Below, one piece after another: positions 3,701-31,247 of a stretch of 64,000 nt of DNA. The number at the start of each line of letters is the position of its first letter. Position 1 is the stretch's first letter. Under the pieces are notes generated by a model. The model was not told where the DNA came from. It was given only the letters and a program-made list of their open reading frames with translations, and made no database searches. The DNA comes from Yeosuana marina (GTDB taxonomy: Bacteria; Bacteroidota; Bacteroidia; Flavobacteriales; Flavobacteriaceae): assembly GCF_011762485.1 (NCBI RefSeq), contig NZ_JAAKGI010000001.1, positions 385,962 to 449,961 on the forward strand. Reading direction: 5' to 3'. The position numbers were made by a program, and so were the translations under genes.

Positions 3701-4829
3701 TTTTTTAGCGAATATGAGCCACGAAATTCGCACGCCAATGAATGGTATTTTAGGTTTTTCAGAACTTCTAAAAACACCTAATCTTTCGGGCGACCAGCAA
3801 CAAAAATTCGTAGGAATAATTGAAAAAAGCGGTAAGCGAATGTTAAATATCATCAACGATATTGTTGATATTTCAAAGATAGAAGCAGGGTTAATGAGAT
3901 TGGATATCAACGAATCAAATATCAACGAGCAAATAGAATATATTTATACATTTTTTAAACCTGAAGTTGAAGCCAAAGGGATGCGACTTTTCTTAAAAAA
4001 GGCCTTGCCTACAAAAGAAGCCACCATTAAAACCGACCGTGAAAAATTGTTTGCCATTCTTACCAACCTTGTAAAAAATGCCATTAAGTATTCCAACGAA
4101 GGTTCCATAGAATTTGGATATGTCTTAAAAACAGATAACGAAACGGTTAATCACAATCAAAAAGCAGAATTAGAATTTTTTGTAAAAGACACAGGTATTG
4201 GCATTCCAAAAGATAGGCAAGAAGCTATTTTTGAGCGTTTTATTCAGGCAGACATAATGGATAAAATGGCCAGACAAGGAGCTGGTCTTGGGTTGTCAAT
4301 TACCAAAGCATATATAGAAATGCTTGGAGGTAAGATATGGTTAGAGAGCGAAGAAGGAATTGGCTCAACATTCTATTTTACCTTGCCTTACACTATTGAA
4401 ACGAATAGAAACCAAATAAGCAAACAGATTAAGGCTAGTAATAATTTAGAAAATAAAGTAAAAAACTTGACAACTCTTATTGCTGAAGATGATGAAACAT
4501 CTGAGGTATTGATTTCTATGTATGTAAGGGAGTTTAGCAATGAAATTATAATTACAAAAAATGGCAAAGAAGCTATTGAAGCGTGTAGTAAAAACCCTAA
4601 CATTGATTTGATTTTGATGGATATTCAAATGCCTGAAATGGATGGGTATAAGGCAACACGCAAAATCAGAAAATTTAATAAAAATGTAATCATTATTGCA
4701 CAAACAGCCTATGGATTGTCTGGCGATAGAGAAAAATCCTTGGAAGCAGGATGTAATGATTATATAACAAAACCTATTGACAGAACTAAATTAGAATCAC
4801 TAATCCAAAAGCATTTCACGAAACGATAA
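717..4829 (+). CDS. Hybrid sensor histidine kinase/response regulator with multiple N-terminal PAS/PAC domains
   Basis: 1370 aa. PAC-like DITE[RL]K motifs repeat. H-box is LANMSHEIRTPMNGILGFSELL. HATPase_c G-boxes are DTGIGIP and GAGLGLSI. C-terminal receiver has LIAEDDE...LILMDIQMPEMDGY...K. Confidence 0.9.
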   Translation: MATYDKKKEELIIELQELRQKYDSLLKSTQRDFLENTLQNNEARYIGLLQNLEAGIVVHAPDTSILMNNSRASELLGLTDNQMKGKEAIDPSWKFIKEDFTTAPFDEYPVNKIVKSKKAIKNQILGIYHPIKNHMVWATINGFPVLNTKGEITEIVISFIDVTERKQVEKRLRKSRDSIENLTNSLWDIVFSVRMPERVIEWCNTSIRSIGYEPSECIGKGTDFLYSNEENYLDFGKKLQNFFNEGSDVLRTEQIFKKKNGETFTADVSLTFEKEDGIIVRTTSVVRDITELKLAEEALSNSEENLAITLQSIGDGVISTDINGRVEHMNPMAEKLCGWRLADAVRKPLSEVFNIINAESRKKVENPVEKVLEKGEIVGLANHTVLISKNGSEYQIADSAAPIINKEGLIRGVVLVFSDITEKYAEEKKLKESEERFNLVMNASNDGLFDWDLITNKIYYSPGWKKMLGYEDHEIPNDFSIWEKITDSEDVKKSWELHQKLINKQIDRFVMEFKMKHKNGHWVDILSRAEAVFDADGKAIRMVGTHVDISKQKKLEQQLLLSKEKAEESKTYLDNIINKIGDPIFVKDEHSSLLLVNEAFCNMFGLNKDEIIGKTLAEDVSPKEQEVFLKIDKQVLKDGIENINEESLTVRGGETRTIATHKTRFLDSNGKKYLIGVIRDITDIKKTQLELLKAKEKAEESELNLQQINSSYKRSNQLLEASQSIAKVGGWELNLLTNKLYWTGETYRIHDTSPEEFNPTVEAGIGYFLPESQQIISNALELAITQGKNYDLQLETYTTKGRKINVRTTADVTIVDGKPTKLTGIFQDITEIKKIELALIKAKESAEESQAKYSKMVENMNSGVAIYQPIKNGKDFEIIDFNKAAEKITNTSAKDIIGSTLLNEFPNMDKSSLFTALQTVFKSGKDVHIPPFFYKDNQREGWRENYIYKLPSGEIVAIFDDITERKTAEISLQNQNEELIFAKEKAEESDRLKSAFLANMSHEIRTPMNGILGFSELLKTPNLSGDQQQKFVGIIEKSGKRMLNIINDIVDISKIEAGLMRLDINESNINEQIEYIYTFFKPEVEAKGMRLFLKKALPTKEATIKTDREKLFAILTNLVKNAIKYSNEGSIEFGYVLKTDNETVNHNQKAELEFFVKDTGIGIPKDRQEAIFERFIQADIMDKMARQGAGLGLSITKAYIEMLGGKIWLESEEGIGSTFYFTLPYTIETNRNQISKQIKASNNLENKVKNLTTLIAEDDETSEVLISMYVREFSNEIIITKNGKEAIEACSKNPNIDLILMDIQMPEMDGYKATRKIRKFNKNVIIIAQTAYGLSGDREKSLEAGCNDYITKPIDRTKLESLIQKHFTKR

Positions 4830-4920
4830 AAAACACCTAAAAATTAAAATCACAGATAGCATTTTATCTATAATTAGCAAGAAGACAAAGGCTTATATTA
4901 AAATATAGGTCTTTCTTGTT

Positions 4921-6381
4921 TTAATTTGAGAGTGTGTTTTCAGCCATTTTTACAAGTTGCCAATACGGAGGTAAATAGCCGTTTAATTTTTTAAAAGTCT
5001 CAATTTTTACTTTTGTTTGTGTCTTACAATTTTGAAATTTTTCAACAAAATTATTATTCTTTAATGCGCTTATAGCGTCCATTCCTTCTGGAATCACGCC
5101 TTCTTTGCCCATAATATTAAATATATAGGAGTAGCCTTTAATAACTCTTGCTAGCGGCAGCATAAAAATATTGTAATCTAGTTTTGCTCCATTATTAGCT
5201 TCACTTAGTAAAGCATCCATTACGGCATTATCTAGATGGTCTTGAAAAAGAATATCTTTATCCCTCCATTCTGCAACAACACTTAACATAGGGTCATATT
5301 CGAGGTCCGATGGCATTTGAGTTACAAAATTCTCTACTCCAAAAGTATTAAGCCAGTCCATAACTCCATCTGACGAGATAGTCGATTTAAACTCCCATAA
5401 CGATATCCCAAACTGTTTATAGGCATAAGAACCAACTTCAGAACAAAACATAGCACTAGAATCGTAATAATCCATTTTGAAGTCATATGGGATATGTCTA
5501 GTTTGCGATTCCTTAAAAATATATGAAGAAACCTGATATGGAAGCATGGGATTTGATTCTATTTGAGGTAAATCATTTCTAGGTCTCATAACTATAAAGC
5601 GCAATTTTTTATCATTCAAATAAGTTTTAAGTGATGATATTGCAACACCTTTTTCAATGTGAGCCTCCACAAAATAAGGTTTATTTGTAGCTTTATCAAT
5701 ATGAATAATTGCAACGTGCGAAAAATTTCCAGGATAATCATTTCCTCTTGAAATAAATGCTGAAACTTCGGCACCACCCCGACTTATCAATAAATCTCCA
5801 CTATGAACTTTTATTCCTAGGATATTAACCGAAGGCGTTACAGATGGTTCTTCAGTTACATACATTGTAGAGATAAAATCATTATTATTTGATTGTAATA
5901 AAACTTCTTCTACAGATGCTCTCATACCATATAGTAAGCGGTAAGATGTATTACGGGCATTTATATGATTCATATTCCAAAAGCGAGAATCTGATTTTAT
6001 CTTTTTTCTAACCCTATTATAGTAGTTAATATACCAATCTGATTTCTTTGGTTGTGCGGCAATTAAGGGGGTTATGTTAAAGAAATTAGTCTCAATCAAA
6101 CTGTATAGGCTATCGTCTGGTTTGCTTATTGTGTTTTCAAGAGTATTTAATAGAGCATCTGCGTTATAACTCAAGTCATTTACAATAGAATCCAATTCTA
6201 TAGAAGGAATTCTTTTAGCTTCTTGAAATCTTATTTCTAAACCTTCCCAAAGGCTATCTTGGTTCCAAATAAAAGGGTTATGGGTTGCCTTTTGAATGTT
6301 TTTTTCATTTGAGGGAAAGGGAATAAGCAGTAAAACATATAAACCTAAAATAACTAATAAAAAAATATAAATTTTTTTCAT
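4921..6381 (-). CDS. Membrane-anchored hypothetical protein. Its C-terminal half resembles a permuted papain-like (YiiX/YaeF, NlpC/P60 superfamily) domain.
   Basis: N-terminal TM helix MKKIYIFLLVILGLYVLLLIPF. GDLLISRG...FSHVAIIHID (His) precedes SAMFCSEVGSY (Cys), the His-before-Cys order typical of permuted YiiX-like enzymes. The domain call is tentative. Confidence 0.45.
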   Translation of the reverse strand: MKKIYIFLLVILGLYVLLLIPFPSNEKNIQKATHNPFIWNQDSLWEGLEIRFQEAKRIPSIELDSIVNDLSYNADALLNTLENTISKPDDSLYSLIETNFFNITPLIAAQPKKSDWYINYYNRVRKKIKSDSRFWNMNHINARNTSYRLLYGMRASVEEVLLQSNNNDFISTMYVTEEPSVTPSVNILGIKVHSGDLLISRGGAEVSAFISRGNDYPGNFSHVAIIHIDKATNKPYFVEAHIEKGVAISSLKTYLNDKKLRFIVMRPRNDLPQIESNPMLPYQVSSYIFKESQTRHIPYDFKMDYYDSSAMFCSEVGSYAYKQFGISLWEFKSTISSDGVMDWLNTFGVENFVTQMPSDLEYDPMLSVVAEWRDKDILFQDHLDNAVMDALLSEANNGAKLDYNIFMLPLARVIKGYSYIFNIMGKEGVIPEGMDAISALKNNNFVEKFQNCKTQTKVKIETFKKLNGYLPPYWQLVKMAENTLSN

Positions 6382-6558: not shown

Positions 6559-6630
6559 GGCTCCATAGTTCAAGGGATAGAACAAAAGTTTCCTAAACTT
6601 TAGATCCAGGTTCGAATCCTGGTGGAGTCA
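6559..6630 (+). tRNA. tRNA-Arg (anticodon CCU)
   Basis: 72-nt cloverleaf. Acceptor GGCTCCA/TGGAGTC with one G-U pair. D-arm GTTC-AAGGGATA-GAAC. Anticodon arm AAAGT-TTCCTAA-ACTTT gives anticodon CCT. T-arm CCAGG-TTCGAAT-CCTGG. Discriminator A, no encoded CCA. Confidence 0.85.
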
Positions 6631-17516: not shown

Positions 17517-19862
17517 ATGTTTAAAAGAATAGTTGTATTTGCAATTTATCTCTTTCCGCTCTGTTATTTTGCTCAAGACTTTTCTGGGCTTTGGAAAGGC
17601 TATTTTTCGTTTTACAATATTAAAGACGTTGTTCAAGGCAATAATAAAATTTATGGAGCTTCAGAAAATGCTGTTTTTAGCTATGATACACAGACTCATG
17701 ATATCAAAGAAATTACGACGGTTAACGGGTTGTCTGGAGAGCAAATATCTACCATTTATTACAGCGAAGCTTATCAATTATTGATGATCGGTTATGAAAA
17801 CGGACTCATAGAAATCGCATTTGATAACGATGATAATGTACTAACTCTTGTAGATATTATAGACAAGGCAACCATACCACCAACAAACAAAAGAATCAAT
17901 CACTTTAACGCTTATGGCAATGTAGTGTATGTGGCTACAAATTATGGAATATCTGTTTTTAATTTAGATAGGCTAGAGTTTGGAGACACCTATTTTATTG
18001 GAAATTTAGGAAGTCAGACCAAAGTAAATCAAACAAGCATTTTTGGCGATTATATGTATGCGGCTTGCCAAGATGGAAACGGATTGCGAAAAGCACTTAT
18101 TTCAAATCCTAATCTCATAGATTATCAAAATTGGCAAACCGTTACAACGGGTGATTTTTTGGCTGTTGAAGCTGTGCAAGATAATTTGTACGCCATAAGA
18201 ACCAACAGAAGGCTTTATAGCGTTATAAATGATGTTTTAAGTGAATTAGTATTATATGATAACCCACCGCTGGATGTAAAATCGGTTAATGATAATTTAA
18301 TAGTCACCACCAAAAGCAATGTTTTTGTGTATGATGCTAATTTTAATATCCTTTCTCAAATAGGCCTAAATGCAGACTATAATACAACGTATTCTTCAGC
18401 AAGCCTTGTGTCAGATAATGTATATATAGGAACAAACGATTTTGGAGTGTTAAAAACGGTATTACTATCGCCAGTTACTTTTGAAGAGGTACATCCTGAT
18501 GGACCCTTATTAAACACCCCGTTTTCTATAAAAGCAACACCCAACAATCTTTGGGTAACATATGGAGATTATACTATTTATTACAACCCTTCACCTTTTC
18601 GAACTTATGGAATAAGTCATTTGAAAGATGAGCGGTGGGTTAATATTCCTTATGATAGTCTATTTAATTCAAGAAATTTAAACACGATTGCTATAAACCC
18701 TCTTAATACGAGTCAAGTTTTTATTAGTTCTTTTCAGGATGGGTTATTAGAAGTCGAAAATAATCAAGCAGTAATCAGGTACGATCAAACTAACAGTGGT
18801 TTAGAATCTCTTTACTTGCCTGGTAGTCCAAACTATATTAGTTTAAGGTTGTCTGGATTAGTTTTTGATAGTGCAGGATTACTGTGGTCTATAACATCTT
18901 TACTTAATAAGCCTTTAAAGTCTTATAACCCAAGCACCAAAGAATGGAGAAGCTACGATTTTACAAATATTATTAATGATCCTATTCAAGATAATTTGGG
19001 GTTTAATAATTTAGTTATTGATCCTTCAGGAACAAAATTCATCTCTTCATTTTCTAAAGGTGTTATCGGTTTTAATGAAAATAATGGAAATCCATTATTA
19101 AAAAATATAAGTGAGGAAGCTAATTTACCAGATAAGTCTGTCAGGACGGTTGCTTTAGATAAAAGAAATCAACTTTGGATAGGCACTCATAAAGGCTTAC
19201 GAATTTTATACAATACGTCCAACTTTTTTACTGATGATAATGTGCAAGCCGATGATATTATTATTCTAGAAGATGGTATTCCAAAAGAATTATTATTTGA
19301 ACAATTTATTTCGGATATTGAAGTCGATGGATCTAATAACAAGTGGATAGGCACCATTGGTTCTGGGCTTTTTTATTTGAGTTATGATGGTCAAAAAACA
19401 ATCCATCATTTTACTAAGGATAATTCACCGCTGCCATCAAATGATATACAAGATGTTTCCATTGATAATGCAACGGGAGAGGTTTATATTGCAACTAGTA
19501 AAGGCTTAGTATCCTTTCATTCAGGAGGCTCTAATCCGCAGGAAAACTTACAAAGTGCTTATGTATATCCAAATCCTGTTCGTCCAACGTTTAATATCGT
19601 AGATCAGAAAGTCAAAATTAAAGACATTTCAGAAAATGTAAATATTAAAATAACCGATATTGAAGGTAATTTGGTGGCCGAAGCCCAATCGAGAACCAAT
19701 TTACGTTATAATGGCTATAATCTTGAAATTGATGGCGGAACTGCCTATTGGAACGGTAAAAACCTTGCTAATAACGTGGTAGCGTCTGGGGTTTATTTAG
19801 TGATGCTTTCCGATTTGGATACCTACGAAACCAGAGTTATAAAATTAATGGTCGTTAGATAA
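17517..19862 (+). CDS. Secreted T9SS cargo protein with beta-propeller (two-component-regulator propeller-like) repeats
   Basis: Signal peptide MFKRIVVFAIYLFPLCYFAQ. Repeated Y/W-rich propeller-like blades. C-terminal T9SS type-A sorting domain (YVYPNPV...GVYLVMLSD...RVIKLMVVR). Confidence 0.6.
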   Translation: MFKRIVVFAIYLFPLCYFAQDFSGLWKGYFSFYNIKDVVQGNNKIYGASENAVFSYDTQTHDIKEITTVNGLSGEQISTIYYSEAYQLLMIGYENGLIEIAFDNDDNVLTLVDIIDKATIPPTNKRINHFNAYGNVVYVATNYGISVFNLDRLEFGDTYFIGNLGSQTKVNQTSIFGDYMYAACQDGNGLRKALISNPNLIDYQNWQTVTTGDFLAVEAVQDNLYAIRTNRRLYSVINDVLSELVLYDNPPLDVKSVNDNLIVTTKSNVFVYDANFNILSQIGLNADYNTTYSSASLVSDNVYIGTNDFGVLKTVLLSPVTFEEVHPDGPLLNTPFSIKATPNNLWVTYGDYTIYYNPSPFRTYGISHLKDERWVNIPYDSLFNSRNLNTIAINPLNTSQVFISSFQDGLLEVENNQAVIRYDQTNSGLESLYLPGSPNYISLRLSGLVFDSAGLLWSITSLLNKPLKSYNPSTKEWRSYDFTNIINDPIQDNLGFNNLVIDPSGTKFISSFSKGVIGFNENNGNPLLKNISEEANLPDKSVRTVALDKRNQLWIGTHKGLRILYNTSNFFTDDNVQADDIIILEDGIPKELLFEQFISDIEVDGSNNKWIGTIGSGLFYLSYDGQKTIHHFTKDNSPLPSNDIQDVSIDNATGEVYIATSKGLVSFHSGGSNPQENLQSAYVYPNPVRPTFNIVDQKVKIKDISENVNIKITDIEGNLVAEAQSRTNLRYNGYNLEIDGGTAYWNGKNLANNVVASGVYLVMLSDLDTYETRVIKLMVVR

Positions 19863-20581
19863 TGATTGTTTCAACCCATGCAATTGTAATTTCAAAACTA
19901 CGATATCGCGATCATGATTTAATTGTAAAATGTTACACGCAGCAATACGGGGTGCTGAGTTTTTTATTACGAGGTGTTTTAAAAAGCAAAAAAGGACTTG
20001 CCAAAACAGCCTATTTTCAATTATTAACGCAATTACAATTGGTTATTGTTTATAACCCTAACAGGTCGTTGCACTCTATAAAAGAAGCCAAACTTAACCA
20101 TTTGTACAGCAGCTTACATTCTAATGTATCAAAAAGTGCTATCGTTATGTTTTTGGCCGAAGTGCTGTCAAGCATATTAAAGGAGGAAGAAGAAAACAGC
20201 ACGCTTTTTAGCTATATAGAAACCACTTTATTGTGGCTAGACACCCATACCGAATGTTCAAACTTTCATTTGCTTTTTTTATTAAACTTAACAAAATATC
20301 TCGGGTTTTATCCTGAAAACACCACCGTCGATTTCCCGTTTTTTAACCTTCAAGATGGTAAGTTTCAATTGAAGCCAATGGGACCTTATACAATATCTGG
20401 TGATAATTTTAATCTCTTAAAGCAATTACTTGATACTAAGTTTGATGAGTTATCTCAGTTAAAGATAAATTCCAAGCAGCGTCAAGCATTTTTAAACATG
20501 ATGCTACAGTATTACGAACTTCATTTGGGTGATTTTAAAAAACCAAAATCGCTACAGGTATTAAACCAGGTTTTTGGCTAA
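19862..20581 (+). CDS. recO: DNA repair protein RecO
   Basis: 239 aa. N-terminal MIVSTHAIVISKLRYRDHDLIVKCYT OB-fold segment typical of Bacteroidetes RecO. Confidence 0.7.
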   Translation: MIVSTHAIVISKLRYRDHDLIVKCYTQQYGVLSFLLRGVLKSKKGLAKTAYFQLLTQLQLVIVYNPNRSLHSIKEAKLNHLYSSLHSNVSKSAIVMFLAEVLSSILKEEEENSTLFSYIETTLLWLDTHTECSNFHLLFLLNLTKYLGFYPENTTVDFPFFNLQDGKFQLKPMGPYTISGDNFNLLKQLLDTKFDELSQLKINSKQRQAFLNMMLQYYELHLGDFKKPKSLQVLNQVFG

Positions 20582-20586
20582 CTAGT

Positions 20587-20708
20587 GTCATTACGAGGAG
20601 CAAAGCGATGACGTAATCTTTTTATTTGGAGTTAAAAAGTCTATAGATTGCTTTGTTTTACTTGCAATGGCATTAAATTAGTGACTAACTGAGTTAGCAA
20701 TGACAAGT
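20587..20708. repeat. Degenerate copy of the composite repeat element (T1 hairpin + T2 pair) seen around the GIY-YIG ORF
   Basis: GTCATTACGAGGAGCAAAGCGATGACGTAATC followed by GATTGCTTTGTTTTACTTGCAATGGC and ...GTTAGCAATGACAAG. Module order matches 26556..26682. Confidence 0.45.
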
Positions 20709-20715
20709 TTTAAAC

Positions 20716-22917
20716 TTAATTTAAAATAGCTTTTTTGGTCACTAAAGAACCATTCGATAATTCAATGTTCGCAATAAAAATGGATTGATTTAAATGAGGA
20801 AGATTGTAAGTTTCTTCGCTGTTAACACCCTTTAATTTATATAACATTCTTCCTTGTAAATCAATAATATTTATTGATTTAATAGACGTATTGTTCGCTA
20901 CTTTAAAGCACACTTGATTTTGTCCTTGTTTGAAAATTTTAACAGTATTACTCTCTAATGTAGCTGTATCTGTCGACAAAGCAGCGGTTTGAAATACAAT
21001 TTCAAAACGACTATTAAATTCTCCAACTTCCGAACTAAAGGTGTAGTCGTTAGCAGATAAATCATGAATTGTGTTAAGTAGGTTATCTTTTAAATAAATT
21101 GTATGTCCTTTCAAAAAATCACCTTCCATTTGCGCTATAGAAATAGTATAAACAGTTGCTTCTGTAATTTTAGTTTTAAAGCCTAGAGCAATAACTTCTT
21201 CATCAGTCAAACTGTTTACATTTTTACCTTGAATAACATACTTTTTAGATGAATTTTGAATAGTTGAATATAATAATGCGGCCCCTGAATCTGATTTTGG
21301 CGAATCATACATTAAGCCATCATTGTCATTAGTGGCGCCATCAACATATCCAACCAAAATTTGACTAAACACACCGTTGTTTGATTTTAAATCAATCCAT
21401 AATTTATTTGAAACGATGTTATTTGTGGTGTTTTTAGTGTTTGATGATTTAAAAAACTGGGTATTATCGGTAGTTCCTTTTACACGCATATTATTTTTAA
21501 AAGTCAAAATTCCATCCGCTTTTGCAGTTAGAGATACTCCTTGTCCCGAAGGTATAAATTGGGTAGGAATCACCTCGCTTGCACCCGCTACTCCAGCATG
21601 CATTCCAACAGAATAAGTGGCATAATCATTTTGACTAAATTTCCCACTACTATTTGCTGGAGTTGCTTGAGACCAAAAGGACACAGTACCTTCTATTACA
21701 GAACTATTCTCGGCGTATAACTTATCAAAATCAATAGCAGATGCATAAGGATTACCAATTAAATTTGGATGACCTTCAGAATTTGCATCACCAGTATATG
21801 CTATAGGTGTAGTTATGATTCCTGTATTAAAGGTACCCGTAAAGGTTACATAGTCTGGACCAGGAAAGGTTGATGAGGTTGACGATGTTACTGCATAGGC
21901 TACTCCGGGAATCATAACACTATTTCCTGGAGCTATTTGCCAATCATTTCCGTCATCATCAAAATTATCATTATTAGCATCTAAAAAATTACTCGCCTCA
22001 AAGTAAAACCTTCTGCTTGAAGACACATTAGGAAACGCCTCTGCTACAGTCATGTTTGCTACTGGCGAGCCCCAAAACGTATAATAATACCAGGCGTTTT
22101 TATTGGCAGTTGTTTTATTAACATGTCCTGTTCCGGTAAATGTTCCATTATCGTTTACTTGTACAAAAGCACCTTTAGTTTCTACAATAAGGTCACCATT
22201 TATAACAGCATCATTTTCCACTTCAACATAGGTTTCATTGTCAACTGTTAGTGTTTTACCAGCATTAACTGTTAGTTCTTTACAACTAAAACTTCCTCTT
22301 ATTCCAGTATTAAAATCATCGTCAATAGTCACTATTTTATTAGATGATGGAAGCACACCGTTAATCCAACTGTTGTTTCTCCAAATAGCATCTAATAATG
22401 TTCCTGTTACATTTACATTATCAAAGGTGTGAGATTTAAACCCGTCATTACGTAGTTTAACAATAATAGTTAAGTTGGAATAGCCATTATTTTGAAGATT
22501 ACTGAGTGTTATGGTTGTATCACTAAAATTATTAAATTTAGATTGTATTAAAACTTCATTTCCACCGTCTATAGAATAATAGGCACTAATATAATCACTA
22601 CTATTTATTCCCCATCCACTAACGCTCACATCTAGCGAGATATTTAAATCTGTATAATTAGAAATATCAATAGATGAACTTGTCCATACATCCTCTCCTT
22701 GAGAGTAAAACGATCTCATTTGATTGTTATTTACATCAAAAGGGCTCAACCAGGACGTATAATAATTATTAGAAGACCAGTTAGAAGTAGACGTTGTACC
22801 ATTGTTAGCGGTAAACGTTTCATTATATAGACTGGTTTGAGCATTGCTTAAAGCAACACTGCTTAAAAAAAGTATTGTAAACGCTATTAATTTGGTAATT
22901 GTAAAGTTAAATTTCAT
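20716..22917 (-). CDS. Secreted T9SS cargo protein, paralog A
   Basis: Signal peptide. C-terminal sorting domain ...IELSNGSLVTKKAILN. The core (FVQVNDNGT..., NAWYYYTFWGSPV, TFKNNMRVKGTTDNTQFFKSSNTKN, GVFSQILVGYVDGATNDNDG) is shared with 23250..25754. Confidence 0.65.
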   Translation of the reverse strand: MKFNFTITKLIAFTILFLSSVALSNAQTSLYNETFTANNGTTSTSNWSSNNYYTSWLSPFDVNNNQMRSFYSQGEDVWTSSSIDISNYTDLNISLDVSVSGWGINSSDYISAYYSIDGGNEVLIQSKFNNFSDTTITLSNLQNNGYSNLTIIVKLRNDGFKSHTFDNVNVTGTLLDAIWRNNSWINGVLPSSNKIVTIDDDFNTGIRGSFSCKELTVNAGKTLTVDNETYVEVENDAVINGDLIVETKGAFVQVNDNGTFTGTGHVNKTTANKNAWYYYTFWGSPVANMTVAEAFPNVSSSRRFYFEASNFLDANNDNFDDDGNDWQIAPGNSVMIPGVAYAVTSSTSSTFPGPDYVTFTGTFNTGIITTPIAYTGDANSEGHPNLIGNPYASAIDFDKLYAENSSVIEGTVSFWSQATPANSSGKFSQNDYATYSVGMHAGVAGASEVIPTQFIPSGQGVSLTAKADGILTFKNNMRVKGTTDNTQFFKSSNTKNTTNNIVSNKLWIDLKSNNGVFSQILVGYVDGATNDNDGLMYDSPKSDSGAALLYSTIQNSSKKYVIQGKNVNSLTDEEVIALGFKTKITEATVYTISIAQMEGDFLKGHTIYLKDNLLNTIHDLSANDYTFSSEVGEFNSRFEIVFQTAALSTDTATLESNTVKIFKQGQNQVCFKVANNTSIKSINIIDLQGRMLYKLKGVNSEETYNLPHLNQSIFIANIELSNGSLVTKKAILN

Positions 22918-23185
22918 AATTAAAATAGTTTTGGGGACTAATTTTAAATGTATGGTCGTTTTATCGACGATTTTTACATGTAATATCTTTTCATCTGTTT
23001 TTTTTATATTTGTTTGCAGTTTATCGGAATTTATTGCATTTCAAACAACTGATAATCAAATACTTAGCAAATTTATTATATAGGATAGATTGTTCAATAA
23101 AAATTAGATTAATGGTTAATATATTTGTTGAAACGAGTTAAAATGGTAGAAACAGTCTTTTTTTATTTTTAAATAAGTACGTAAA

Positions 23186-23226
23186 AACCCAGAGTCTTTT
23201 GAGTTGCGCTCAAAAGACTCTGGGTT
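23186..23226 (-). terminator. Strong intrinsic terminator for the 23250..25754 gene
   Basis: Perfect 18-bp stem AACCCAGAGTCTTTTGAG-ttgcg-CTCAAAAGACTCTGGGTT. On the minus strand it is followed by TTTACGTACTTATTT. Confidence 0.6.
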
Positions 23227-23249
23227 ACACTAGAAGTACAGTCAATAAG

Positions 23250-25754
23250 TTACTTTTTAATGGCTTTTTTGGTAATTACTGAACCATTAGATAATTCTAT
23301 TTTAGCAATGAATACAGCATTTTTTAGGTTGGCTAACTTATACGTTTCTATGTTATGACTTCCTTTTAATTGATATAATTGACGCCCTAACAAATCAAAA
23401 ATAGTCACTGTTTTAATGTTGAGGTTGTTAGATGCTTTAAAGCTTACATGCGTATCATCAATTTGCAAAATTTTTACCGTCGAGTTATCCAATTGAACGT
23501 CTGCCGTAGATAAGGTGTTACTAGCTTTAAATACAATTTGAAAACGGTCGTTAAACTCACCAACGTCTGATGTAAATGTATAATCGGAAGTTGATAAATC
23601 GTGTAAGATATTGGTAAGGTTGTCAAGTACATAGATGGTATTAGTACTTAAAAAATCACCTTGTAGTTTTGCTATAGACAAGGTGTACAGGGTGGGTACA
23701 TCAATTTGGGTGCTAAAACCAAGGTTTATAATTTCATCTTCATTTAAACTGCTTTCAGATTTACCTTGAATAGCAAACACTTTGTTTGACCCTTCAATAG
23801 TAGAGTATAAAATGGCAGCTTTACTACTGGAATTTTTTTCTGCATCAAAATAGGCACCATCGTAATTATTGGTAGCCCCTTTTGTATAGCCAATAAGAGT
23901 TTGATTAAACACACCGTTATCAGAGGTTAAATTGACCCAAAGTTTGTTTATAGTTGATGTTGATGTATAGGATTTTGTATTTGAATTTTTGAAAAACTGA
24001 CTATTATCTGAAGCACCTTTTACACGCATGGAGTTATTAAAAGTTACGTAGCCTTTCGCAATAGGTTGTCCCTCAGTATTAGGAGTGGTTGAAACAGGCG
24101 TAGCTAAATCAGACATTGTAATAAAAAACCCTTGTCCTGAAGGTATAAAGTCATTTGGTTGTTCGCCATCGCCACCAGCTACACCGCCCATTCCATTAAT
24201 GATGGCATAATCAGAATCAGAAAAATTACGATCTTCGTTACCATTTGCTATTGATGAAGGCGGTGTGTTTTGCGACCATAAATAGATGGCTCCATTTGTA
24301 TAAGGGTTTCCATTAATATCAGTTCCGCTACCATTTGTTGCTATCACCGTATTAGCAGCTAAAAATGAATTAGCATCAATAGCAGACGGATACGGATTAC
24401 CAATAAAATTAAAGTTTTCATCAGCTTTTTCAGAGTCATTTCTGTAAATAGGAACTGAAATAACACCATTATTAAAGGGCCCAGAAAATGTAAATTTGAT
24501 GTGTTTGTCTGAGGTTCCTGGAGCTGTACTATATGCGAATTCTGAAAGAGTAGCAGCATAACCAACACCACGTTTCATAACGTCAGTACCACTTACCAAT
24601 TGCCAGTCATCTCCATTATCATCAATACCATCTTGTCCAGTGCTTGCTGTGCCATCATTATTTGTTTCTTTCTTAACATCTAAATAATTTTGAGCATTAA
24701 ATGAAAAAATTCTAGTAGGGTTAGCATCACTTAAAGCAACTTGTATTTGTGGTTCAAAAACAGGGGAACTCCAATAGGTATATTCATACCAAGCATTTGT
24801 TGCTGCTGTTAGTTTTTCAACTTGAATTAAATTAGGGGTTGTTAAAACGGCACCACTAACGGTTGCATCATCATTAACTTGAACAAATGCTGCTTGTGGG
24901 TTTACAAGAATAGCTCCATCGACAACAACATCATTTTGTACTTCAATAAAAGTGTTGGAAAGAGCCCCATTAATAACATCATTAATTGATAATGTAGCAC
25001 CAGAATTAACTGTTAAACTGCACGCAGAAAAACTACCATAAGTAGCTGTGTCATAGTCAGCATCAATAGTTACAGAGGTATTCGCTGTCGGTGGACTAGG
25101 AATCCATCCTCCAGCAGTCCAAGTGGAGGAATTAAGACAACATGCTGCCGGTGCGTTTCCAAAACCTATCATATTTTGTCCATCTGCAATTTGAGTAAAT
25201 CTTGTGCTTGGGTCTGTCCAACCTGCAGTGTCCCCATCACATAAGCCATTTATAATTTGTAAATTATTACCTTCTGTTGATACACCTCCACCACTCCAGG
25301 CTGTAATAGGATCATCACCACAAGTTCCAAAGGCATCTTGTAACACACCACCTAAGTATAACTGTAAGGCATCATTACCGTTAAAATCGAAACCGTATTC
25401 TTTAATATCAGAGAGGTTAGTTCCGTTAGCGATTGCATAATCTGTTAAATTTTTTGTGCCAATTACCCAAACTTCATTTGCACGTAAAGTTCCACTTGTG
25501 ATTTCTGCTCCAGGGAAACCATCGGCACAAGGATATCCGTTTCTTCCAACATAAACTTGTAAATTATTTGTACCTGAAAAAGTAATATCAGAACCTGAAA
25601 TATTATAAATTTCAATACCTTTTGGAGTTGACCCAAATGAAGTCTCTATGTATTGACTAATAATTATTTGAGATTGCCCAAACCCAAAACTCACGGCAAA
25701 AAATAGTGTTAGTACTAGAGACAGGAATTTTATAGAAGTAATTTTTGTATTCAT
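23250..25754 (-). CDS. Secreted T9SS cargo protein, paralog B, with N-terminal lamin-tail-like (LTD) domain
   Basis: Signal peptide. IIISQYIETSFGSTPKGIEIYNISGSDITF resembles LTD. Core is shared with paralog A. C-terminal sorting domain ...IELSNGSVITKKAIKK. Confidence 0.65.
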   Translation of the reverse strand: MNTKITSIKFLSLVLTLFFAVSFGFGQSQIIISQYIETSFGSTPKGIEIYNISGSDITFSGTNNLQVYVGRNGYPCADGFPGAEITSGTLRANEVWVIGTKNLTDYAIANGTNLSDIKEYGFDFNGNDALQLYLGGVLQDAFGTCGDDPITAWSGGGVSTEGNNLQIINGLCDGDTAGWTDPSTRFTQIADGQNMIGFGNAPAACCLNSSTWTAGGWIPSPPTANTSVTIDADYDTATYGSFSACSLTVNSGATLSINDVINGALSNTFIEVQNDVVVDGAILVNPQAAFVQVNDDATVSGAVLTTPNLIQVEKLTAATNAWYEYTYWSSPVFEPQIQVALSDANPTRIFSFNAQNYLDVKKETNNDGTASTGQDGIDDNGDDWQLVSGTDVMKRGVGYAATLSEFAYSTAPGTSDKHIKFTFSGPFNNGVISVPIYRNDSEKADENFNFIGNPYPSAIDANSFLAANTVIATNGSGTDINGNPYTNGAIYLWSQNTPPSSIANGNEDRNFSDSDYAIINGMGGVAGGDGEQPNDFIPSGQGFFITMSDLATPVSTTPNTEGQPIAKGYVTFNNSMRVKGASDNSQFFKNSNTKSYTSTSTINKLWVNLTSDNGVFNQTLIGYTKGATNNYDGAYFDAEKNSSSKAAILYSTIEGSNKVFAIQGKSESSLNEDEIINLGFSTQIDVPTLYTLSIAKLQGDFLSTNTIYVLDNLTNILHDLSTSDYTFTSDVGEFNDRFQIVFKASNTLSTADVQLDNSTVKILQIDDTHVSFKASNNLNIKTVTIFDLLGRQLYQLKGSHNIETYKLANLKNAVFIAKIELSNGSVITKKAIKK

Positions 25755-25785: not shown

Positions 25786-26298
25786 ATGCCTAATATGTCT
25801 GTTTCAATTGTTACTTTTGGGTTTATGCAAGCCAAAAAAACATATACTGTACAAGAAGCTACCAAAAAACTAGAGCATTATTGTGCGTACCAAGAACGTT
25901 GTCATCAAGAGGTTAAAAACAAGCTAACCAATATGCATATGATTCCTGAGGCTATCGATGTGATTATCGTTCACCTGCTGGAACATAACTTTCTTAATGA
26001 AGAACGTTTTGCCAAAACATTTGCTAGCGGTAAGTTTAAAATTAAGAATTGGGGGAAACGCCGAATTGCTTTTGAACTTAAGAAAAAAGACGTTTCCAAA
26101 GTTAATATAAATCAAGCACTTACAGAAATATCTGACGAGGATTACATCGATGTTTTTAATGATTTAGCCGAGAAAAGAGCCAATTCAATCAAAGAGTCCA
26201 ACGTTTTTAAGAAACGAAAAAAGTTTGTGGATTATTTTTTATACCGAGGCTGGGAGTCGCATTTGGTGTATGAAAAGGCTAATGAGTTGATACAATAA
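25786..26298 (+). CDS. recX: RecX-family regulatory protein
   Basis: 170 aa. Helical repeats; the HYCAYQERCHQEV...FLNEERFA pattern resembles Bacteroidetes RecX. Confidence 0.55.
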   Translation: MPNMSVSIVTFGFMQAKKTYTVQEATKKLEHYCAYQERCHQEVKNKLTNMHMIPEAIDVIIVHLLEHNFLNEERFAKTFASGKFKIKNWGKRRIAFELKKKDVSKVNINQALTEISDEDYIDVFNDLAEKRANSIKESNVFKKRKKFVDYFLYRGWESHLVYEKANELIQ

Positions 26299-26303
26299 CC
26301 TAT

Positions 26304-26700
26304 CGTCATTACGAAGGAGGCACGACTGAAGTAATCTTTTGAATTGGAATTCATAATCTTTTGAATCGTAGTTTAGAATCATGAGATTGCTTCGCTTTGC
26401 TCGCAATGACGGTTCCAATTCGTCACTGCGAGGAATTGATGACGTGGCAGTCTTTAGTTTTGTAGTTGGTAATCATGAGATTGCTTCGCTACGCTCGCAA
26501 TGACGTTTCAATGAGGGTAAGATTGCTTCGCTACGCTCGCAATGACGTGCATTTCGTCATTACGAAGGAAGAATGACTGAAGTAATCTTTTGAATTGTAG
26601 TTTAAATCATAAGATTGCTACGCTTTGCTCGCAATGACGGTTCAATGAGACAGAGATTACTTCGCTACGCTCGCAATGACGGTTCAATGAAAACACCAAT
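26304..26700. repeat. Array of two interleaved short palindromic repeat families (T1 ~45 bp, T2 ~28 bp), left flank of the GIY-YIG ORF
   Basis: T2 consensus is GATTGCTTCGCTWYGCTCGCAATGACGG, with copies at 26385, 26479, 26521, 26613 and 26655. T1 is CGTCATTACGAAGGARGMAYGACTGAAGTAATCTTTTGAATTG at 26304 and 26556. The composite T1 + T2 pair at 26556..26682 recurs at 27042..27168. Confidence 0.7.
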
Positions 26701-26718
26701 AAATTAGTATATTTAATC

Positions 26719-27018
26719 ATGCACAAATCACATGTATATTTTATGACTAATAAAAACAACACCGTTATTTATATCGGTGTTACCAGTGATTTGTTAAAAA
26801 GGGTATATCAGCATAAAACAAAATCTTATAAAGGGTTTACACAGAAATATAGTTGTGATAAATTGGTTTATTTTGAAGAGTTTTCAGATATAAACCAAGC
26901 TATTTTAAGAGAAAAACAATTAAAATCTGGAAACAGAAAACGAAAGGAGGATTTGATTAACTCTAGCAATCCAGAGTGGAATGATTTATCTGATGGCTGG
27001 CTGTTTTATTTTGATTGA
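26719..27018 (+). CDS. Small GIY-YIG nuclease superfamily protein
   Basis: 99 aa. VYFMTNKNNTVIYIGVTSDLLKRVYQH matches the GIY...YIG motifs, with Arg and Glu downstream. Confidence 0.8.
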   Translation: MHKSHVYFMTNKNNTVIYIGVTSDLLKRVYQHKTKSYKGFTQKYSCDKLVYFEEFSDINQAILREKQLKSGNRKRKEDLINSSNPEWNDLSDGWLFYFD

Positions 27019-27021
27019 GCT

Positions 27022-27168
27022 CGTCATTACGAAGGAGGCACGTCATTACGAAGGAAGAATGACTGAAGTAATCTTTTGAATTGTAGTTTAAAGCATAAGA
27101 TTGCTTCGCTTTGCTCGCAATGACGGTTCGATGAGACAGAGATTGCTTCGCTTTGCTCGCAATGACGG
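27022..27168. repeat. Right-flank copy of the composite T1 + T2-pair repeat (direct repeat of 26556..26682)
   Basis: A partial T1 at 27022..27042 is followed by a complete T1 and two T2 copies at 27099 and 27141. I estimate ~93% identity to the left copy. Confidence 0.7.
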
Positions 27169-27234
27169 TTGCATATAAAAAAAGCGGAAAACAATTGTTT
27201 TGCTTTCCACTTTTTAAAATGATATAAAGAGCTT

Positions 27235-27726
27235 TTATAAATTAAATGTAGCTCCTAAATTTACTGTAAACTGATTGTATAATGTTTCAGCAGGTGTTAA
27301 CGTATCGGTATTAAACTTAGCAAAAGGGGTGCTTAATTCAGTAAAAATTCCAAACCCATCTGTAAAGAAATAACGCATTCCTAAATGACCACCAAAGTTT
27401 TTTAGGCTCACATCTAAACCTGGGTAAATATCAAAGTTCTCATCTATATTCACCACATTTCCTAAGTTAGCATTAAAGCGTGCTTTTAAATCAAACCGAT
27501 CTTGAAACTTGGCATCAATGGCCTCATTTACATTTAAGGCATACGATGAAGACAAACCTAACGAAATGTTTTCGCCTACACCCACATCGTAACTAGCATT
27601 AATTCCGGTTGCATTATCTTGAAAACTAGCACCTATTTGAAATTTGTCATCGCCATTACCTTTAAAGGCTTGTGCATTGATCAATGAAACAGTAAGTAAG
27701 CTAGCTATTAAAATTAGTTTTTTCAT
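27235..27726 (-). CDS. Small hypothetical outer-membrane/secreted beta-rich protein
   Basis: Signal peptide MKKLILIASLLTVSLINAQA. C-terminal ...GATFNL. Confidence 0.4.
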   Translation of the reverse strand: MKKLILIASLLTVSLINAQAFKGNGDDKFQIGASFQDNATGINASYDVGVGENISLGLSSSYALNVNEAIDAKFQDRFDLKARFNANLGNVVNIDENFDIYPGLDVSLKNFGGHLGMRYFFTDGFGIFTELSTPFAKFNTDTLTPAETLYNQFTVNLGATFNL

Positions 27727-31076: not shown

Positions 31077-31170
31077 GAATTCTATTTTCATTCTTAGAAT
31101 CATCAATCTCTTTGCCGTTTGATGGATGTATCTGATTCTAAAGGTTTTTGTCTAAAAAGTATATTTTTAG

Positions 31171-31247
31171 GTCATTGCGAGGAACGAAGCAATCTGTAAG
31201 TTATTAGTATTTCAACAACAGATTACTTCACTGCGTTCATAATGACG
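31171..31247. repeat. Inverted pair of T2-family repeats
   Basis: GTCATTGCGAGGAACGAAGCAATC (reverse orientation), then 26 bp, then GATTACTTCACTGCGTTCATAATGACG. Confidence 0.6.

Follow-up and report, generated by a model that had tools for sequence, protein, structure and literature searches.

A GIY-YIG nuclease gene of probable Ssn type flanked by CGTC-tagged hairpins in Yeosuana marina

What is a nuclease gene of 99 codons doing in the middle of an array of palindromic repeats? The question is raised by a 64,000-nucleotide (nt) stretch of the Yeosuana marina genome (contig NZ_JAAKGI010000001.1, positions 385,962 to 449,961; hereafter the window), in which a small GIY-YIG open reading frame (ORF) at 26719..27018 on the + strand is surrounded by short hairpin sequences. 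The answer proposed here is that the gene very probably encodes a single-stranded DNA (ssDNA) nuclease of the Ssn type that recognises these hairpin units, a reading that draws on homology, conserved determinants and layout. Judged by their sequence, the units are the CGTC-tagged repetitive extragenic palindromic (REP) sequences of Di Nocera et al. 2013, and the locus would belong to the Ssn family with a hairpin subtype that the published operational pattern does not cover. As a feature it is genuine and statistically solid, it had for the most part been read correctly before, and its kind is already described. The novelty is modest and consists of hairpins that the published pattern misses and of a locus that varies between strains and genera.

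A small nuclease gene among tagged hairpins

The ORF had been proposed to encode a 99-aa GIY-YIG nuclease, and Pfam bears this out: PF01541 matches residues 4-76 with an E-value of 6.5e-17. The Pfam scan found no second domain in the 99-aa protein, neither a transposase domain nor a DNA-binding module, and the gene is treated here as a single-domain ssnA homolog. The original prediction was that a REP-like palindromic family is associated with a gene resembling those of homing endonucleases. The association with this type of GIY-YIG gene stands, but the likeness to homing endonucleases does not: the protein is a single domain of 99 aa, it scores 24.4 bits against the group I intron endonuclease family TIGR01453, below the cut-off of 56, and no match to it was found among 50,697 phage records. 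Homing endonucleases of the I-TevI type do share the catalytic fold with the window protein, as well as the occurrence as a free-standing small gene with a patchy chromosomal position. They differ from it in that the window protein has no DNA-binding domain and lies outside any intron or phage, and in that the characterised Ssn members cut ssDNA only.

The Ssn family is represented by ssnA of Neisseria, a 94-aa single-domain GIY-YIG gene (CDD cd10448, GIY-YIG_unchar_3) that is flanked by the Neisseria repeat NTS, CGTCATTCCCGCGMAVGCGGGAATCYRG, and by related motifs known as SRM (Chenal et al., Nat Commun 2025, PMC11893778). SsnA binds the repeat as ssDNA only and cuts a few nt upstream of it, and RNA is not bound (PMC11893778). 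In the Neisseria repeat, cleavage is governed by three bases 5' of the palindrome and binding by a C 3' of the palindrome, and mutating Y6, Y17 or E64 of N. meningitidis SsnA abolished cleavage (PMC11893778). The motif is found near 71% of Ssn homologs and on both sides of the gene in 42% (PMC11893778).

Searching with the window protein by tblastn led to two N. gonorrhoeae chromosomes filed as plasmids (E 1e-16 and 4e-15; coverage 86%). The target is a 94-codon ORF that contains Y6, Y17 and E64 and sits amid full-consensus NTS repeats. By BLASTP the two proteins are 45% identical over 85 of the 94 aa, without gaps (E 2e-26), and in the alignment Y6, Y17 and E64 of Neisseria SsnA have their counterparts, equally spaced, in Y7, Y18 and E65 of the window protein. 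Homologs of SsnA were defined by E < 1e-10 over > 75% of the length, with a stricter level of at least 60% identity to N. meningitidis SsnA (PMC11893778); the window protein falls within the first of these definitions. The family is large, as 3,744 clusters (50% identity) match the window protein at E ≤ 1e-10, and genera of the Flavobacteriaceae hold homologs at 80-89% identity. The two gonococcal records, NZ_CP119142.1 (L207) and NZ_CP119140.1, are about 2.17 Mb long and are evidently whole chromosomes despite their plasmid labels, with 17 features annotated.

The repeats around the gene had been described as two palindromic families, T1 and T2. They are instead one CGTC-tagged hairpin in two orientations, with subtypes. 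Read from its tag, a unit runs from 5'-(C/T)GTC through a stem of 5 nt and a variable interior to the complement of that stem and a final C. On the + strand T1 has the form CGTC-ATTAC-...-GTAAT-C, on the - strand T2 has the form CGTC-ATTGC-...-GCAAT-C, and a third subtype is CGTC-ACTGC-...-GCAGT-C. The reverse complement of T1, GATTACTTCAGTC..TCCTTCGTAATGACG, is the T2 pattern with a longer interior, and T1-loop-T2 is therefore an inverted dimer of one unit type. GTC stands directly 5' and C directly 3' of the palindrome in all 12 complete units of the window. These units all start with (C/T/G)GTC followed by AT or AC, and they have a basal stem of 5 bp, an interior of 12-18 nt and a tail of C then T.

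The stem halves covary. A given 5-nt variant is joined to its own complement in 62-92% of cases and to foreign complements mostly in 20% or less. The own-complement rates are 92% for ATTGC-GCAAT, ACTGC-GCAGT and ATTCC-GGAAT, 86% for ATCGC-GCGAT, 79% for ATTCT-AGAAT, 75% for ATTAC-GTAAT and 73% for ATCCT-AGGAT. In addition, among 293 distinct units, the C that follows the palindrome on its 3' side is present in 93% and a C or T precedes GTC in 91%; binding and cleavage depended on these positions under mutagenesis (PMC11893778). At one stem position T1 has A..T where T2 has G..C, so that each unit keeps its self-complementarity while the pairing of T1 with T2 degrades, to G.T on one of the strands and to an A.C mismatch on its partner. 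That the units remain individually self-complementary despite this degraded pairing argues for selection on the single unit and not solely on the long dimer.

The array comprises 12 complete units and one truncated unit, with eight of them 5' of the gene and four plus the truncated one 3' of it, in the order (T1 T2)(T3 T2 T2)(T1 T2 T2) gene (t1')(T1 T2 T2). A flanking direct repeat of about 127 bp and about 93% identity had been proposed; a repeat search confirms it at 93% and extends it to 139 nt (26555-26693 vs 27041-27179, bracketing the ORF). The T2 pattern, GATTGCTTCGCTWYGCTCGCAATGACG, occurs seven times in the window, always on the + strand and always at the ssnA locus, and never in shuffles. 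The T1 head, CGTCATTACGAAGGA, occurs four times against 0.06 expected and the T1 tail three times against 0 expected.

The T2 units are spaced 42 nt apart, and the array has been enlarged through duplication of a T1-T2-T2 block. This spacing, together with the presence of the block on both sides of the gene at 93% identity, would fit an array produced by local tandem duplication alone, an explanation that can practically be dismissed. It is refuted by two more hairpin sites in the window, by the orthologous site in other genera, by dimers in Algibacter that are 80-85% identical over 85 nt and by a T2 core found at at least 120 loci. As had been anticipated, the repeats are not unique to this locus but recur in the window, in related genera and in many phyla.

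Association across bacteria and the proposed mechanism

The association of gene and hairpin was followed in 80 diverse metagenome homologs of the window protein with 48-88% identity (L124-L203). Within 200 nt of the gene, the tag motif lies upstream in 45 of 77 relatives and downstream in 49 of 77, against an expected background of 0.03 per 200 nt. It flanks the gene on both sides in 36/74 and on any side in 59/74 (80%), in keeping with the association of repeats and GIY-YIG gene that was originally proposed.

Two layouts can be distinguished. In the tags-outward layout, that of the 36/74 loci with motifs on both sides, the gene sits inside a dimer, preceded by a (+) unit and followed, past its stop codon, by a (-) unit. 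The tags-inward layout has a (-) unit upstream and a (+) unit behind the stop; the window, Algibacter, Kordia and Neisseria show it, and among the relatives a (-) unit is upstream in 15/77 and a (+) unit downstream in 22/77. The gene cassette of the window, a short promoter region plus the ORF, fits precisely between a (-) unit and a (+) unit with their tags turned towards it, and this holds for the cassette in Flavobacteriaceae and in Neisseria. The window and Neisseria are alike in that the (+) unit begins 3-4 nt past the stop codon, with the (-) unit upstream. A bridge to the Neisseria repeat is provided by L176, a relative of 55% identity, in which an NTS-like unit stands directly before the ATG.

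The window locus and the Ssn system also share a single-domain GIY-YIG protein of 94-99 aa with three equally spaced residues, a gene flanked on both sides by oriented hairpins with GTC 5' and C 3', and gene-less repeats elsewhere in the genome. The window locus differs in having two or three diverged subtypes that are segregated by strand, and in its host, a member of the Flavobacteriaceae.

The units themselves have a longer history. CGTC-tagged REPs were defined in five phyla including Bacteroidetes (Di Nocera et al., BMC Genomics 2013, PMC3733652). They are mostly head-to-head dimers with an unpaired CGTC, TGTC or CCTC tag and with A and T at the first two stem positions, the families described have stems of 8-9 bp, loops of 4-5 nt and CCA tails, and they "apparently lack a dedicated transposase" (PMC3733652). 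The window units share the terminal CGTC/TGTC tag, the A and T that open the stem and the arrangement as intergenic head-to-head dimers; the hosts, Bacteroidetes and many Alphaproteobacteria, also agree, and the CGTC-1 type of Bradyrhizobium has variable loops. The differences are a stem of 5 bp, an interior of 12-18 nt and a tail of C(T/C). Furthermore, the 2013 paper found no associated enzyme, whereas the window repeats flank a GIY-YIG gene.

REPs and REPINs with their RAYT (TnpA-REP) transposases are a comparable system. Their palindromes carry an unpaired tag at the 5' side, occur as inverted doublets scattered through intergenic DNA and flank the single-copy gene of their enzyme, which recognises hairpins in ssDNA. 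They are set apart by the tag, which is CGTC in the window and not GTAG, and by the enzyme, which is a hydrolytic GIY-YIG nuclease and not an HUH Y1 transposase with a covalent intermediate.

In species genomes the T2 core was found at at least 120 loci in many phyla, with hosts that include Bradyrhizobium, Sphingomonas, Legionellales, Nitrospirota, Planctomycetota and Omnitrophota. Among the matches listed, the typical locus is an inverted dimer of about 80 nt, CGTCATTGCGAG-x-GAAGCAATCC, a loop and the complement, and a homolog of the nuclease lies within 8 kb in only 3 of the 120, so that most of these copies are gene-less. Dimers with terminal inverted repeats and mostly without a gene could be read as a classical MITE (miniature inverted-repeat transposable element), mobilised in trans by an ordinary transposase, with the GIY-YIG gene as a passenger or a hot-spot insertion. 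This is very unlikely. Such an element would be expected to leave a regular target-site duplication, which was not found, and it leaves aside both the presence of units beside the gene in most relatives across phyla and the change of unit variants with the gene lineage; in addition, CGTC-tagged REPs have no dedicated transposase, as quoted above. Assignment to the insertion sequence (IS) or MITE class was likewise rejected: inverted repeats are present, but neither a regular target-site duplication nor a transposase domain was found.

Several observations weigh against the reading as an Ssn-type nuclease with these units as its target. The SRM search pattern as published, HGTCWYN(0-2)YYVSBRHN(0-5)WNVSBRGN(0-2)RNCYNB, which is a search device and not a definition of the family, has no match in the window; T1, T2 and the alphaproteobacterial consensus all fail it, and it occurs within 300 nt of the gene in only 2 of the 80 relatives. 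The window stem is a 5-bp, AT-rich basal helix with an internal loop, whereas the published stem is GC-rich and 9 bp long (8-9 bp). At 45% identity to the gonococcal protein, the window protein falls short of the strict 60% level. That protein is itself taken as the SsnA ortholog (of CAX49033.1) by its length, its three residues and the flanking NTS repeats, and its ORF starts with ATT in that strain, with no in-frame ATG; the gene may use a rare start or be defective there.

Folding belongs to the same side of the balance. A folding prediction for T1 and T2 had been suggested earlier, and the T1:T2 dimer does give a significant fold (-54.8 kcal/mol as RNA, z -3.8). Single units as ssDNA fold no better than shuffles (-0.3 to -4.3 kcal/mol, z -1.2 to +1.5), so that the structural case for the unit rests on covariation.

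With these points taken into account, the Ssn-type reading would still place a flavobacterial locus in a nuclease family that was characterised only in 2025 and is of interest as an ssDNA-cutting tool. The cognate hairpins appear to be more diverse than the published search pattern allows, and surveys that use the pattern therefore under-count the association. The value of the locus lies in a wider hairpin repertoire for the family and in a polymorphic site for testing spread.

How might such a nuclease work? What it recognises, where it cuts and which role it plays in the cell we infer from the analogy with Neisseria SsnA. Replication, repair, or conjugative or transforming DNA would expose ssDNA, in which the unit would fold. 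The protein would bind the folded unit together with the C on the unit's 3' side and would cut on that strand, a few nt to the 5' side of the GTC tag, leaving duplex DNA and RNA alone. In the array, units of T1 type are carried by the gene's strand and units of T2 type by the opposite one. In N. meningitidis, SsnA lowers transformation by NTS-bearing DNA (PMC11893778). Control of incoming or exposed ssDNA is the only tested precedent for a role.

A different function is suggested by the dimers, which fold strongly as RNA (the z of -3.8 given above) with G.U pairs on the sense strand of the gene. Each of the window's three sites lies in intergenic DNA, either between genes or downstream of them, and many REPs have been argued to be transcribed (PMC3733652). 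The hairpins could thus be mainly RNA or DNA structural elements for the neighbouring genes, such as the terminators, mRNA stabilisers or insulators that have been suggested for classical REPs, and the link to GIY-YIG genes secondary. As the main explanation this is doubtful. It does not account for units at the flanks of about 80% of one nuclease family across phyla, nor for the conservation of the GTC tag and of the 3' C. RNA is not bound by SsnA of Neisseria, and Rfam gave no family over the hairpins, either at gathering thresholds (the window and 16 loci) or in a permissive scan of 26200-27300. An RNA-level role of the dimers may nevertheless coexist with recognition by the nuclease, as it may with the spread discussed below. 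The only Rfam match at the gathering threshold in the window is a tRNA gene at 6559-6630.

Variation of the locus and the question of spread

The gene occupies different chromosomal sites in different genera: between UDG and CMD in Algibacter, between DUF423 and HMA in Kordia and between recX and DUF6646 in the window. In two Algibacter strains and in Kordia it is again flanked by dimers like those of the window, and the window dimer is 80-85% identical to the Algibacter dimers over all 85 nt, loop included. Conversely, the recX|DUF6646 site holds the full array and the gene in the window, about three dimers without the gene in L205, and a single dimer without the gene in Yeosuana aromativorans (L206). 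Past recO, a dimer of about 120 nt in the window contrasts with a 14-nt spacer in L205 and L206. Two Algibacter mikhailovii assemblies (L001 2540-3520 vs L002 2780-3440) differ at the UDG|ssnA|CMD site by about 240 nt upstream, made up of two extra whole dimers and of about 65 nt of flanking sequence in a second, diverged copy; downstream they differ by a segment of 83 nt.

Units and gene thus show turnover at these sites, and presence/absence variation, which had been envisaged between strains, is seen between strains and genera, both in the lack of the gene from L205 and L206 and in the dimers that distinguish the Algibacter strains. An intergenic site that holds one dimer, several dimers, or dimers plus the gene is a concrete place to test spread. 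A seemingly same-species contig (L204 3514-3547, RecX 98% identical) ends 34 nt past recX, within the first T1; the array breaks short-read assemblies.

Is the gene with its hairpins, then, an autonomous selfish element, and are the gene-less dimers its non-autonomous, MITE- or REPIN-like derivatives? Some form of self-spread of this kind is possible, though it is not the explanation we would expect to hold. The nuclease would make the breaks by which the cassette or the dimers spread; one route would be for it to cut an empty tag-to-tag junction, which is then repaired off a filled copy through the homology of the flanking units. The layout in relatives, inverted repeat, gene, inverted repeat, is what such an element would show. 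The variation described above also favours it, namely the different sites of the gene in Algibacter, Kordia and the window, the recX|DUF6646 sites of L205 and L206 that have dimers and no gene, the dimer past recO in the window only, and the whole dimers by which the Algibacter strains differ. To this can be added the truncated unit at the cassette edge (27022-27040) and a single long target duplication in locus L020. An IS-like nature was also raised by the authors of the Ssn study (PMC11893778).

The evidence on the other side begins with the duplication itself. Any flank repeat was found in just 12 of 248 clusters, so that a regular target-site duplication is absent from this set and a long duplication is ruled out as a general signature. 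Phage copies were not found among the records searched, and although 33 records of the plasmid collection matched, chromosomes filed as plasmids are among them and 32 were typed as non-mobilizable. Between genera, SsnA is about 85% identical and RecX about 80-85%; vertical descent therefore suffices. The polymorphism is accounted for just as well if L205 and L206 have lost the gene. In addition, GIY-YIG enzymes are hydrolytic and are not known to have strand-transfer activity, which counts against an autonomous element.

In L020, an uncultured member of the Planctomycetota, the unit-gene-unit segment (4700-5800, - strand) is bracketed by a direct duplication of 116 bp with 99.1% identity. What is duplicated is the start of the pheT-like gene next to it, which ends as a truncated ORF in the upstream copy and runs on as the intact gene in the downstream one.

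A narrower version concerns the ssnA cassette alone, that is, the promoter and the ORF, as a selfish gene that homes into tag-to-tag junctions between units. Such homing is unlikely. Empty tag-to-tag junctions are also present in the arrays, with spacers of 7-9 nt. At an extruded empty junction, a cut about 3 nt 5' of each tag, one per strand, would give a staggered break, and the gene would be copied in when a filled copy, matched through the flanking units, served as the template for repair. If true, this would add a mobile system of a new kind, with an ssDNA-specific GIY-YIG nuclease at its core, and it would supply the mobilising enzyme that is missing for the CGTC-tagged REPs.

Individual units, neighbours and minor observations

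The array opens with unit T1a at 26304..26336 (+), which has the CGTC tag and the stem ATTAC..GTAAT followed by C. It forms an inverted dimer with the T2 unit at 26385..26411 (-), which reads CGTCATTGCGAGCAAAGCGAAGCAATC on the - strand. The next unit, at 26421..26452 (+), is the third subtype, CGTCACTGCGAGGAATTGATGACGTGGCAGTC, with the stem ACTGC..GCAGT; this subtype also adjoins the gene directly upstream in relative L124. T2 units follow at 26479..26505 (-) and 26521..26547 (-), and the 7-nt spacer between the latter and the next (+) unit is a tag-to-tag junction. The extra T1 and T2 copies reported earlier on the left flank, 26304..26547, are accordingly present, with the third subtype (26421-26452) as an addition to them. 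T1b at 26555..26587 (+) opens the left copy of the 139-nt direct repeat and is followed by T2 units at 26613..26639 (-) and 26655..26681 (-), of which the second has a G.T pair in its basal stem, is the last unit before the gene and points its CGTC tag toward it.

On the other side of the gene, a truncated T1a-type head, CGTCATTACGAAGGAGGCA, lies at 27022..27040 (+). This head, also new relative to the original prediction, is fused to the full unit that starts at 27041 by a CG belonging to both, and it looks like the scar of a junction where the gene cassette ends on the right. The full unit, T1c at 27041..27073 (+), opens the right copy of the direct repeat, and T2 units at 27099..27125 (-) and 27141..27167 (-) complete the array.

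The two other sites, known before as a degenerate element at about 20587..20708 and an inverted pair at 31171..31247, both exist with slightly shifted limits. The first is a gene-less degenerate dimer between recO and the next gene at 20586..20705, made up of a (+) unit (20586-20618), a (-) unit (20646-20672) and a remnant (20694-20705). The second is a gene-less, intergenic inverted dimer at 31170..31247, with a (+) unit at 31170-31194 and a (-) unit at 31221-31247. Each of the three sites contains T1-loop-T2 dimers.

The ORF is preceded by recX (25786..26298, +) and followed by a DUF6646 gene of outer-membrane type (27235..27726, -). Just 5' of the start codon, TAGTATATTTA at 26705..26715 (+) is conserved in the window, Algibacter and Kordia and is a candidate Bacteroidota -7 promoter element. 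In the recO-recX interval (17517-25754), the window has two large (-) ORFs of 733 aa and 834 aa; L205 and L206 have one gene of 641-645 aa in that place, a second gene-content difference close to the hairpin sites.

Further protein comparisons gave weak matches of the window protein to the UPF0213 structures 1zg2 (E 0.019) and 1ywl (E 0.37) and, among the PADLOC defence-system profiles, weak matches to the generic GIY-YIG domain only. A protein search seeded with relative L176 and aimed at N. meningitidis SsnA returned only Patescibacteria-type proteins. A generic structural scan for GTC, a 5-nt stem and C was discarded as a detector of units, as its 22 matches compare with 14 ± 3 in shuffles and are not specific.

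Many database homologs of the nuclease are 120-170 aa long because gene callers extended the ORFs upstream through a hairpin unit. Read-through ORFs also occur in the window at 26381..26503 (+), 27027..27194 (-), 27088..27210 (-) and 26607..26762 (-); they encode peptides such as MRLLRFARNDG and NRHCEQSEAI, which are translation artefacts of the repeats.

The distinct units range from 24 to 93 nt with a median of 34. Nested self-complementary inserts of up to about 50 nt are found inside units of L030 and L048 (Bradyrhizobium) and of L141, L190 and L197 (metagenomes), and these units keep the tag, the basal stem and the 3' C. The oligonucleotide d(GCGAAGC) forms an unusually stable DNA mini-hairpin, and the heptamer GCGAAGC lies within 58 of 296 distinct units, including the window unit at 26655-26681 and many alphaproteobacterial units.

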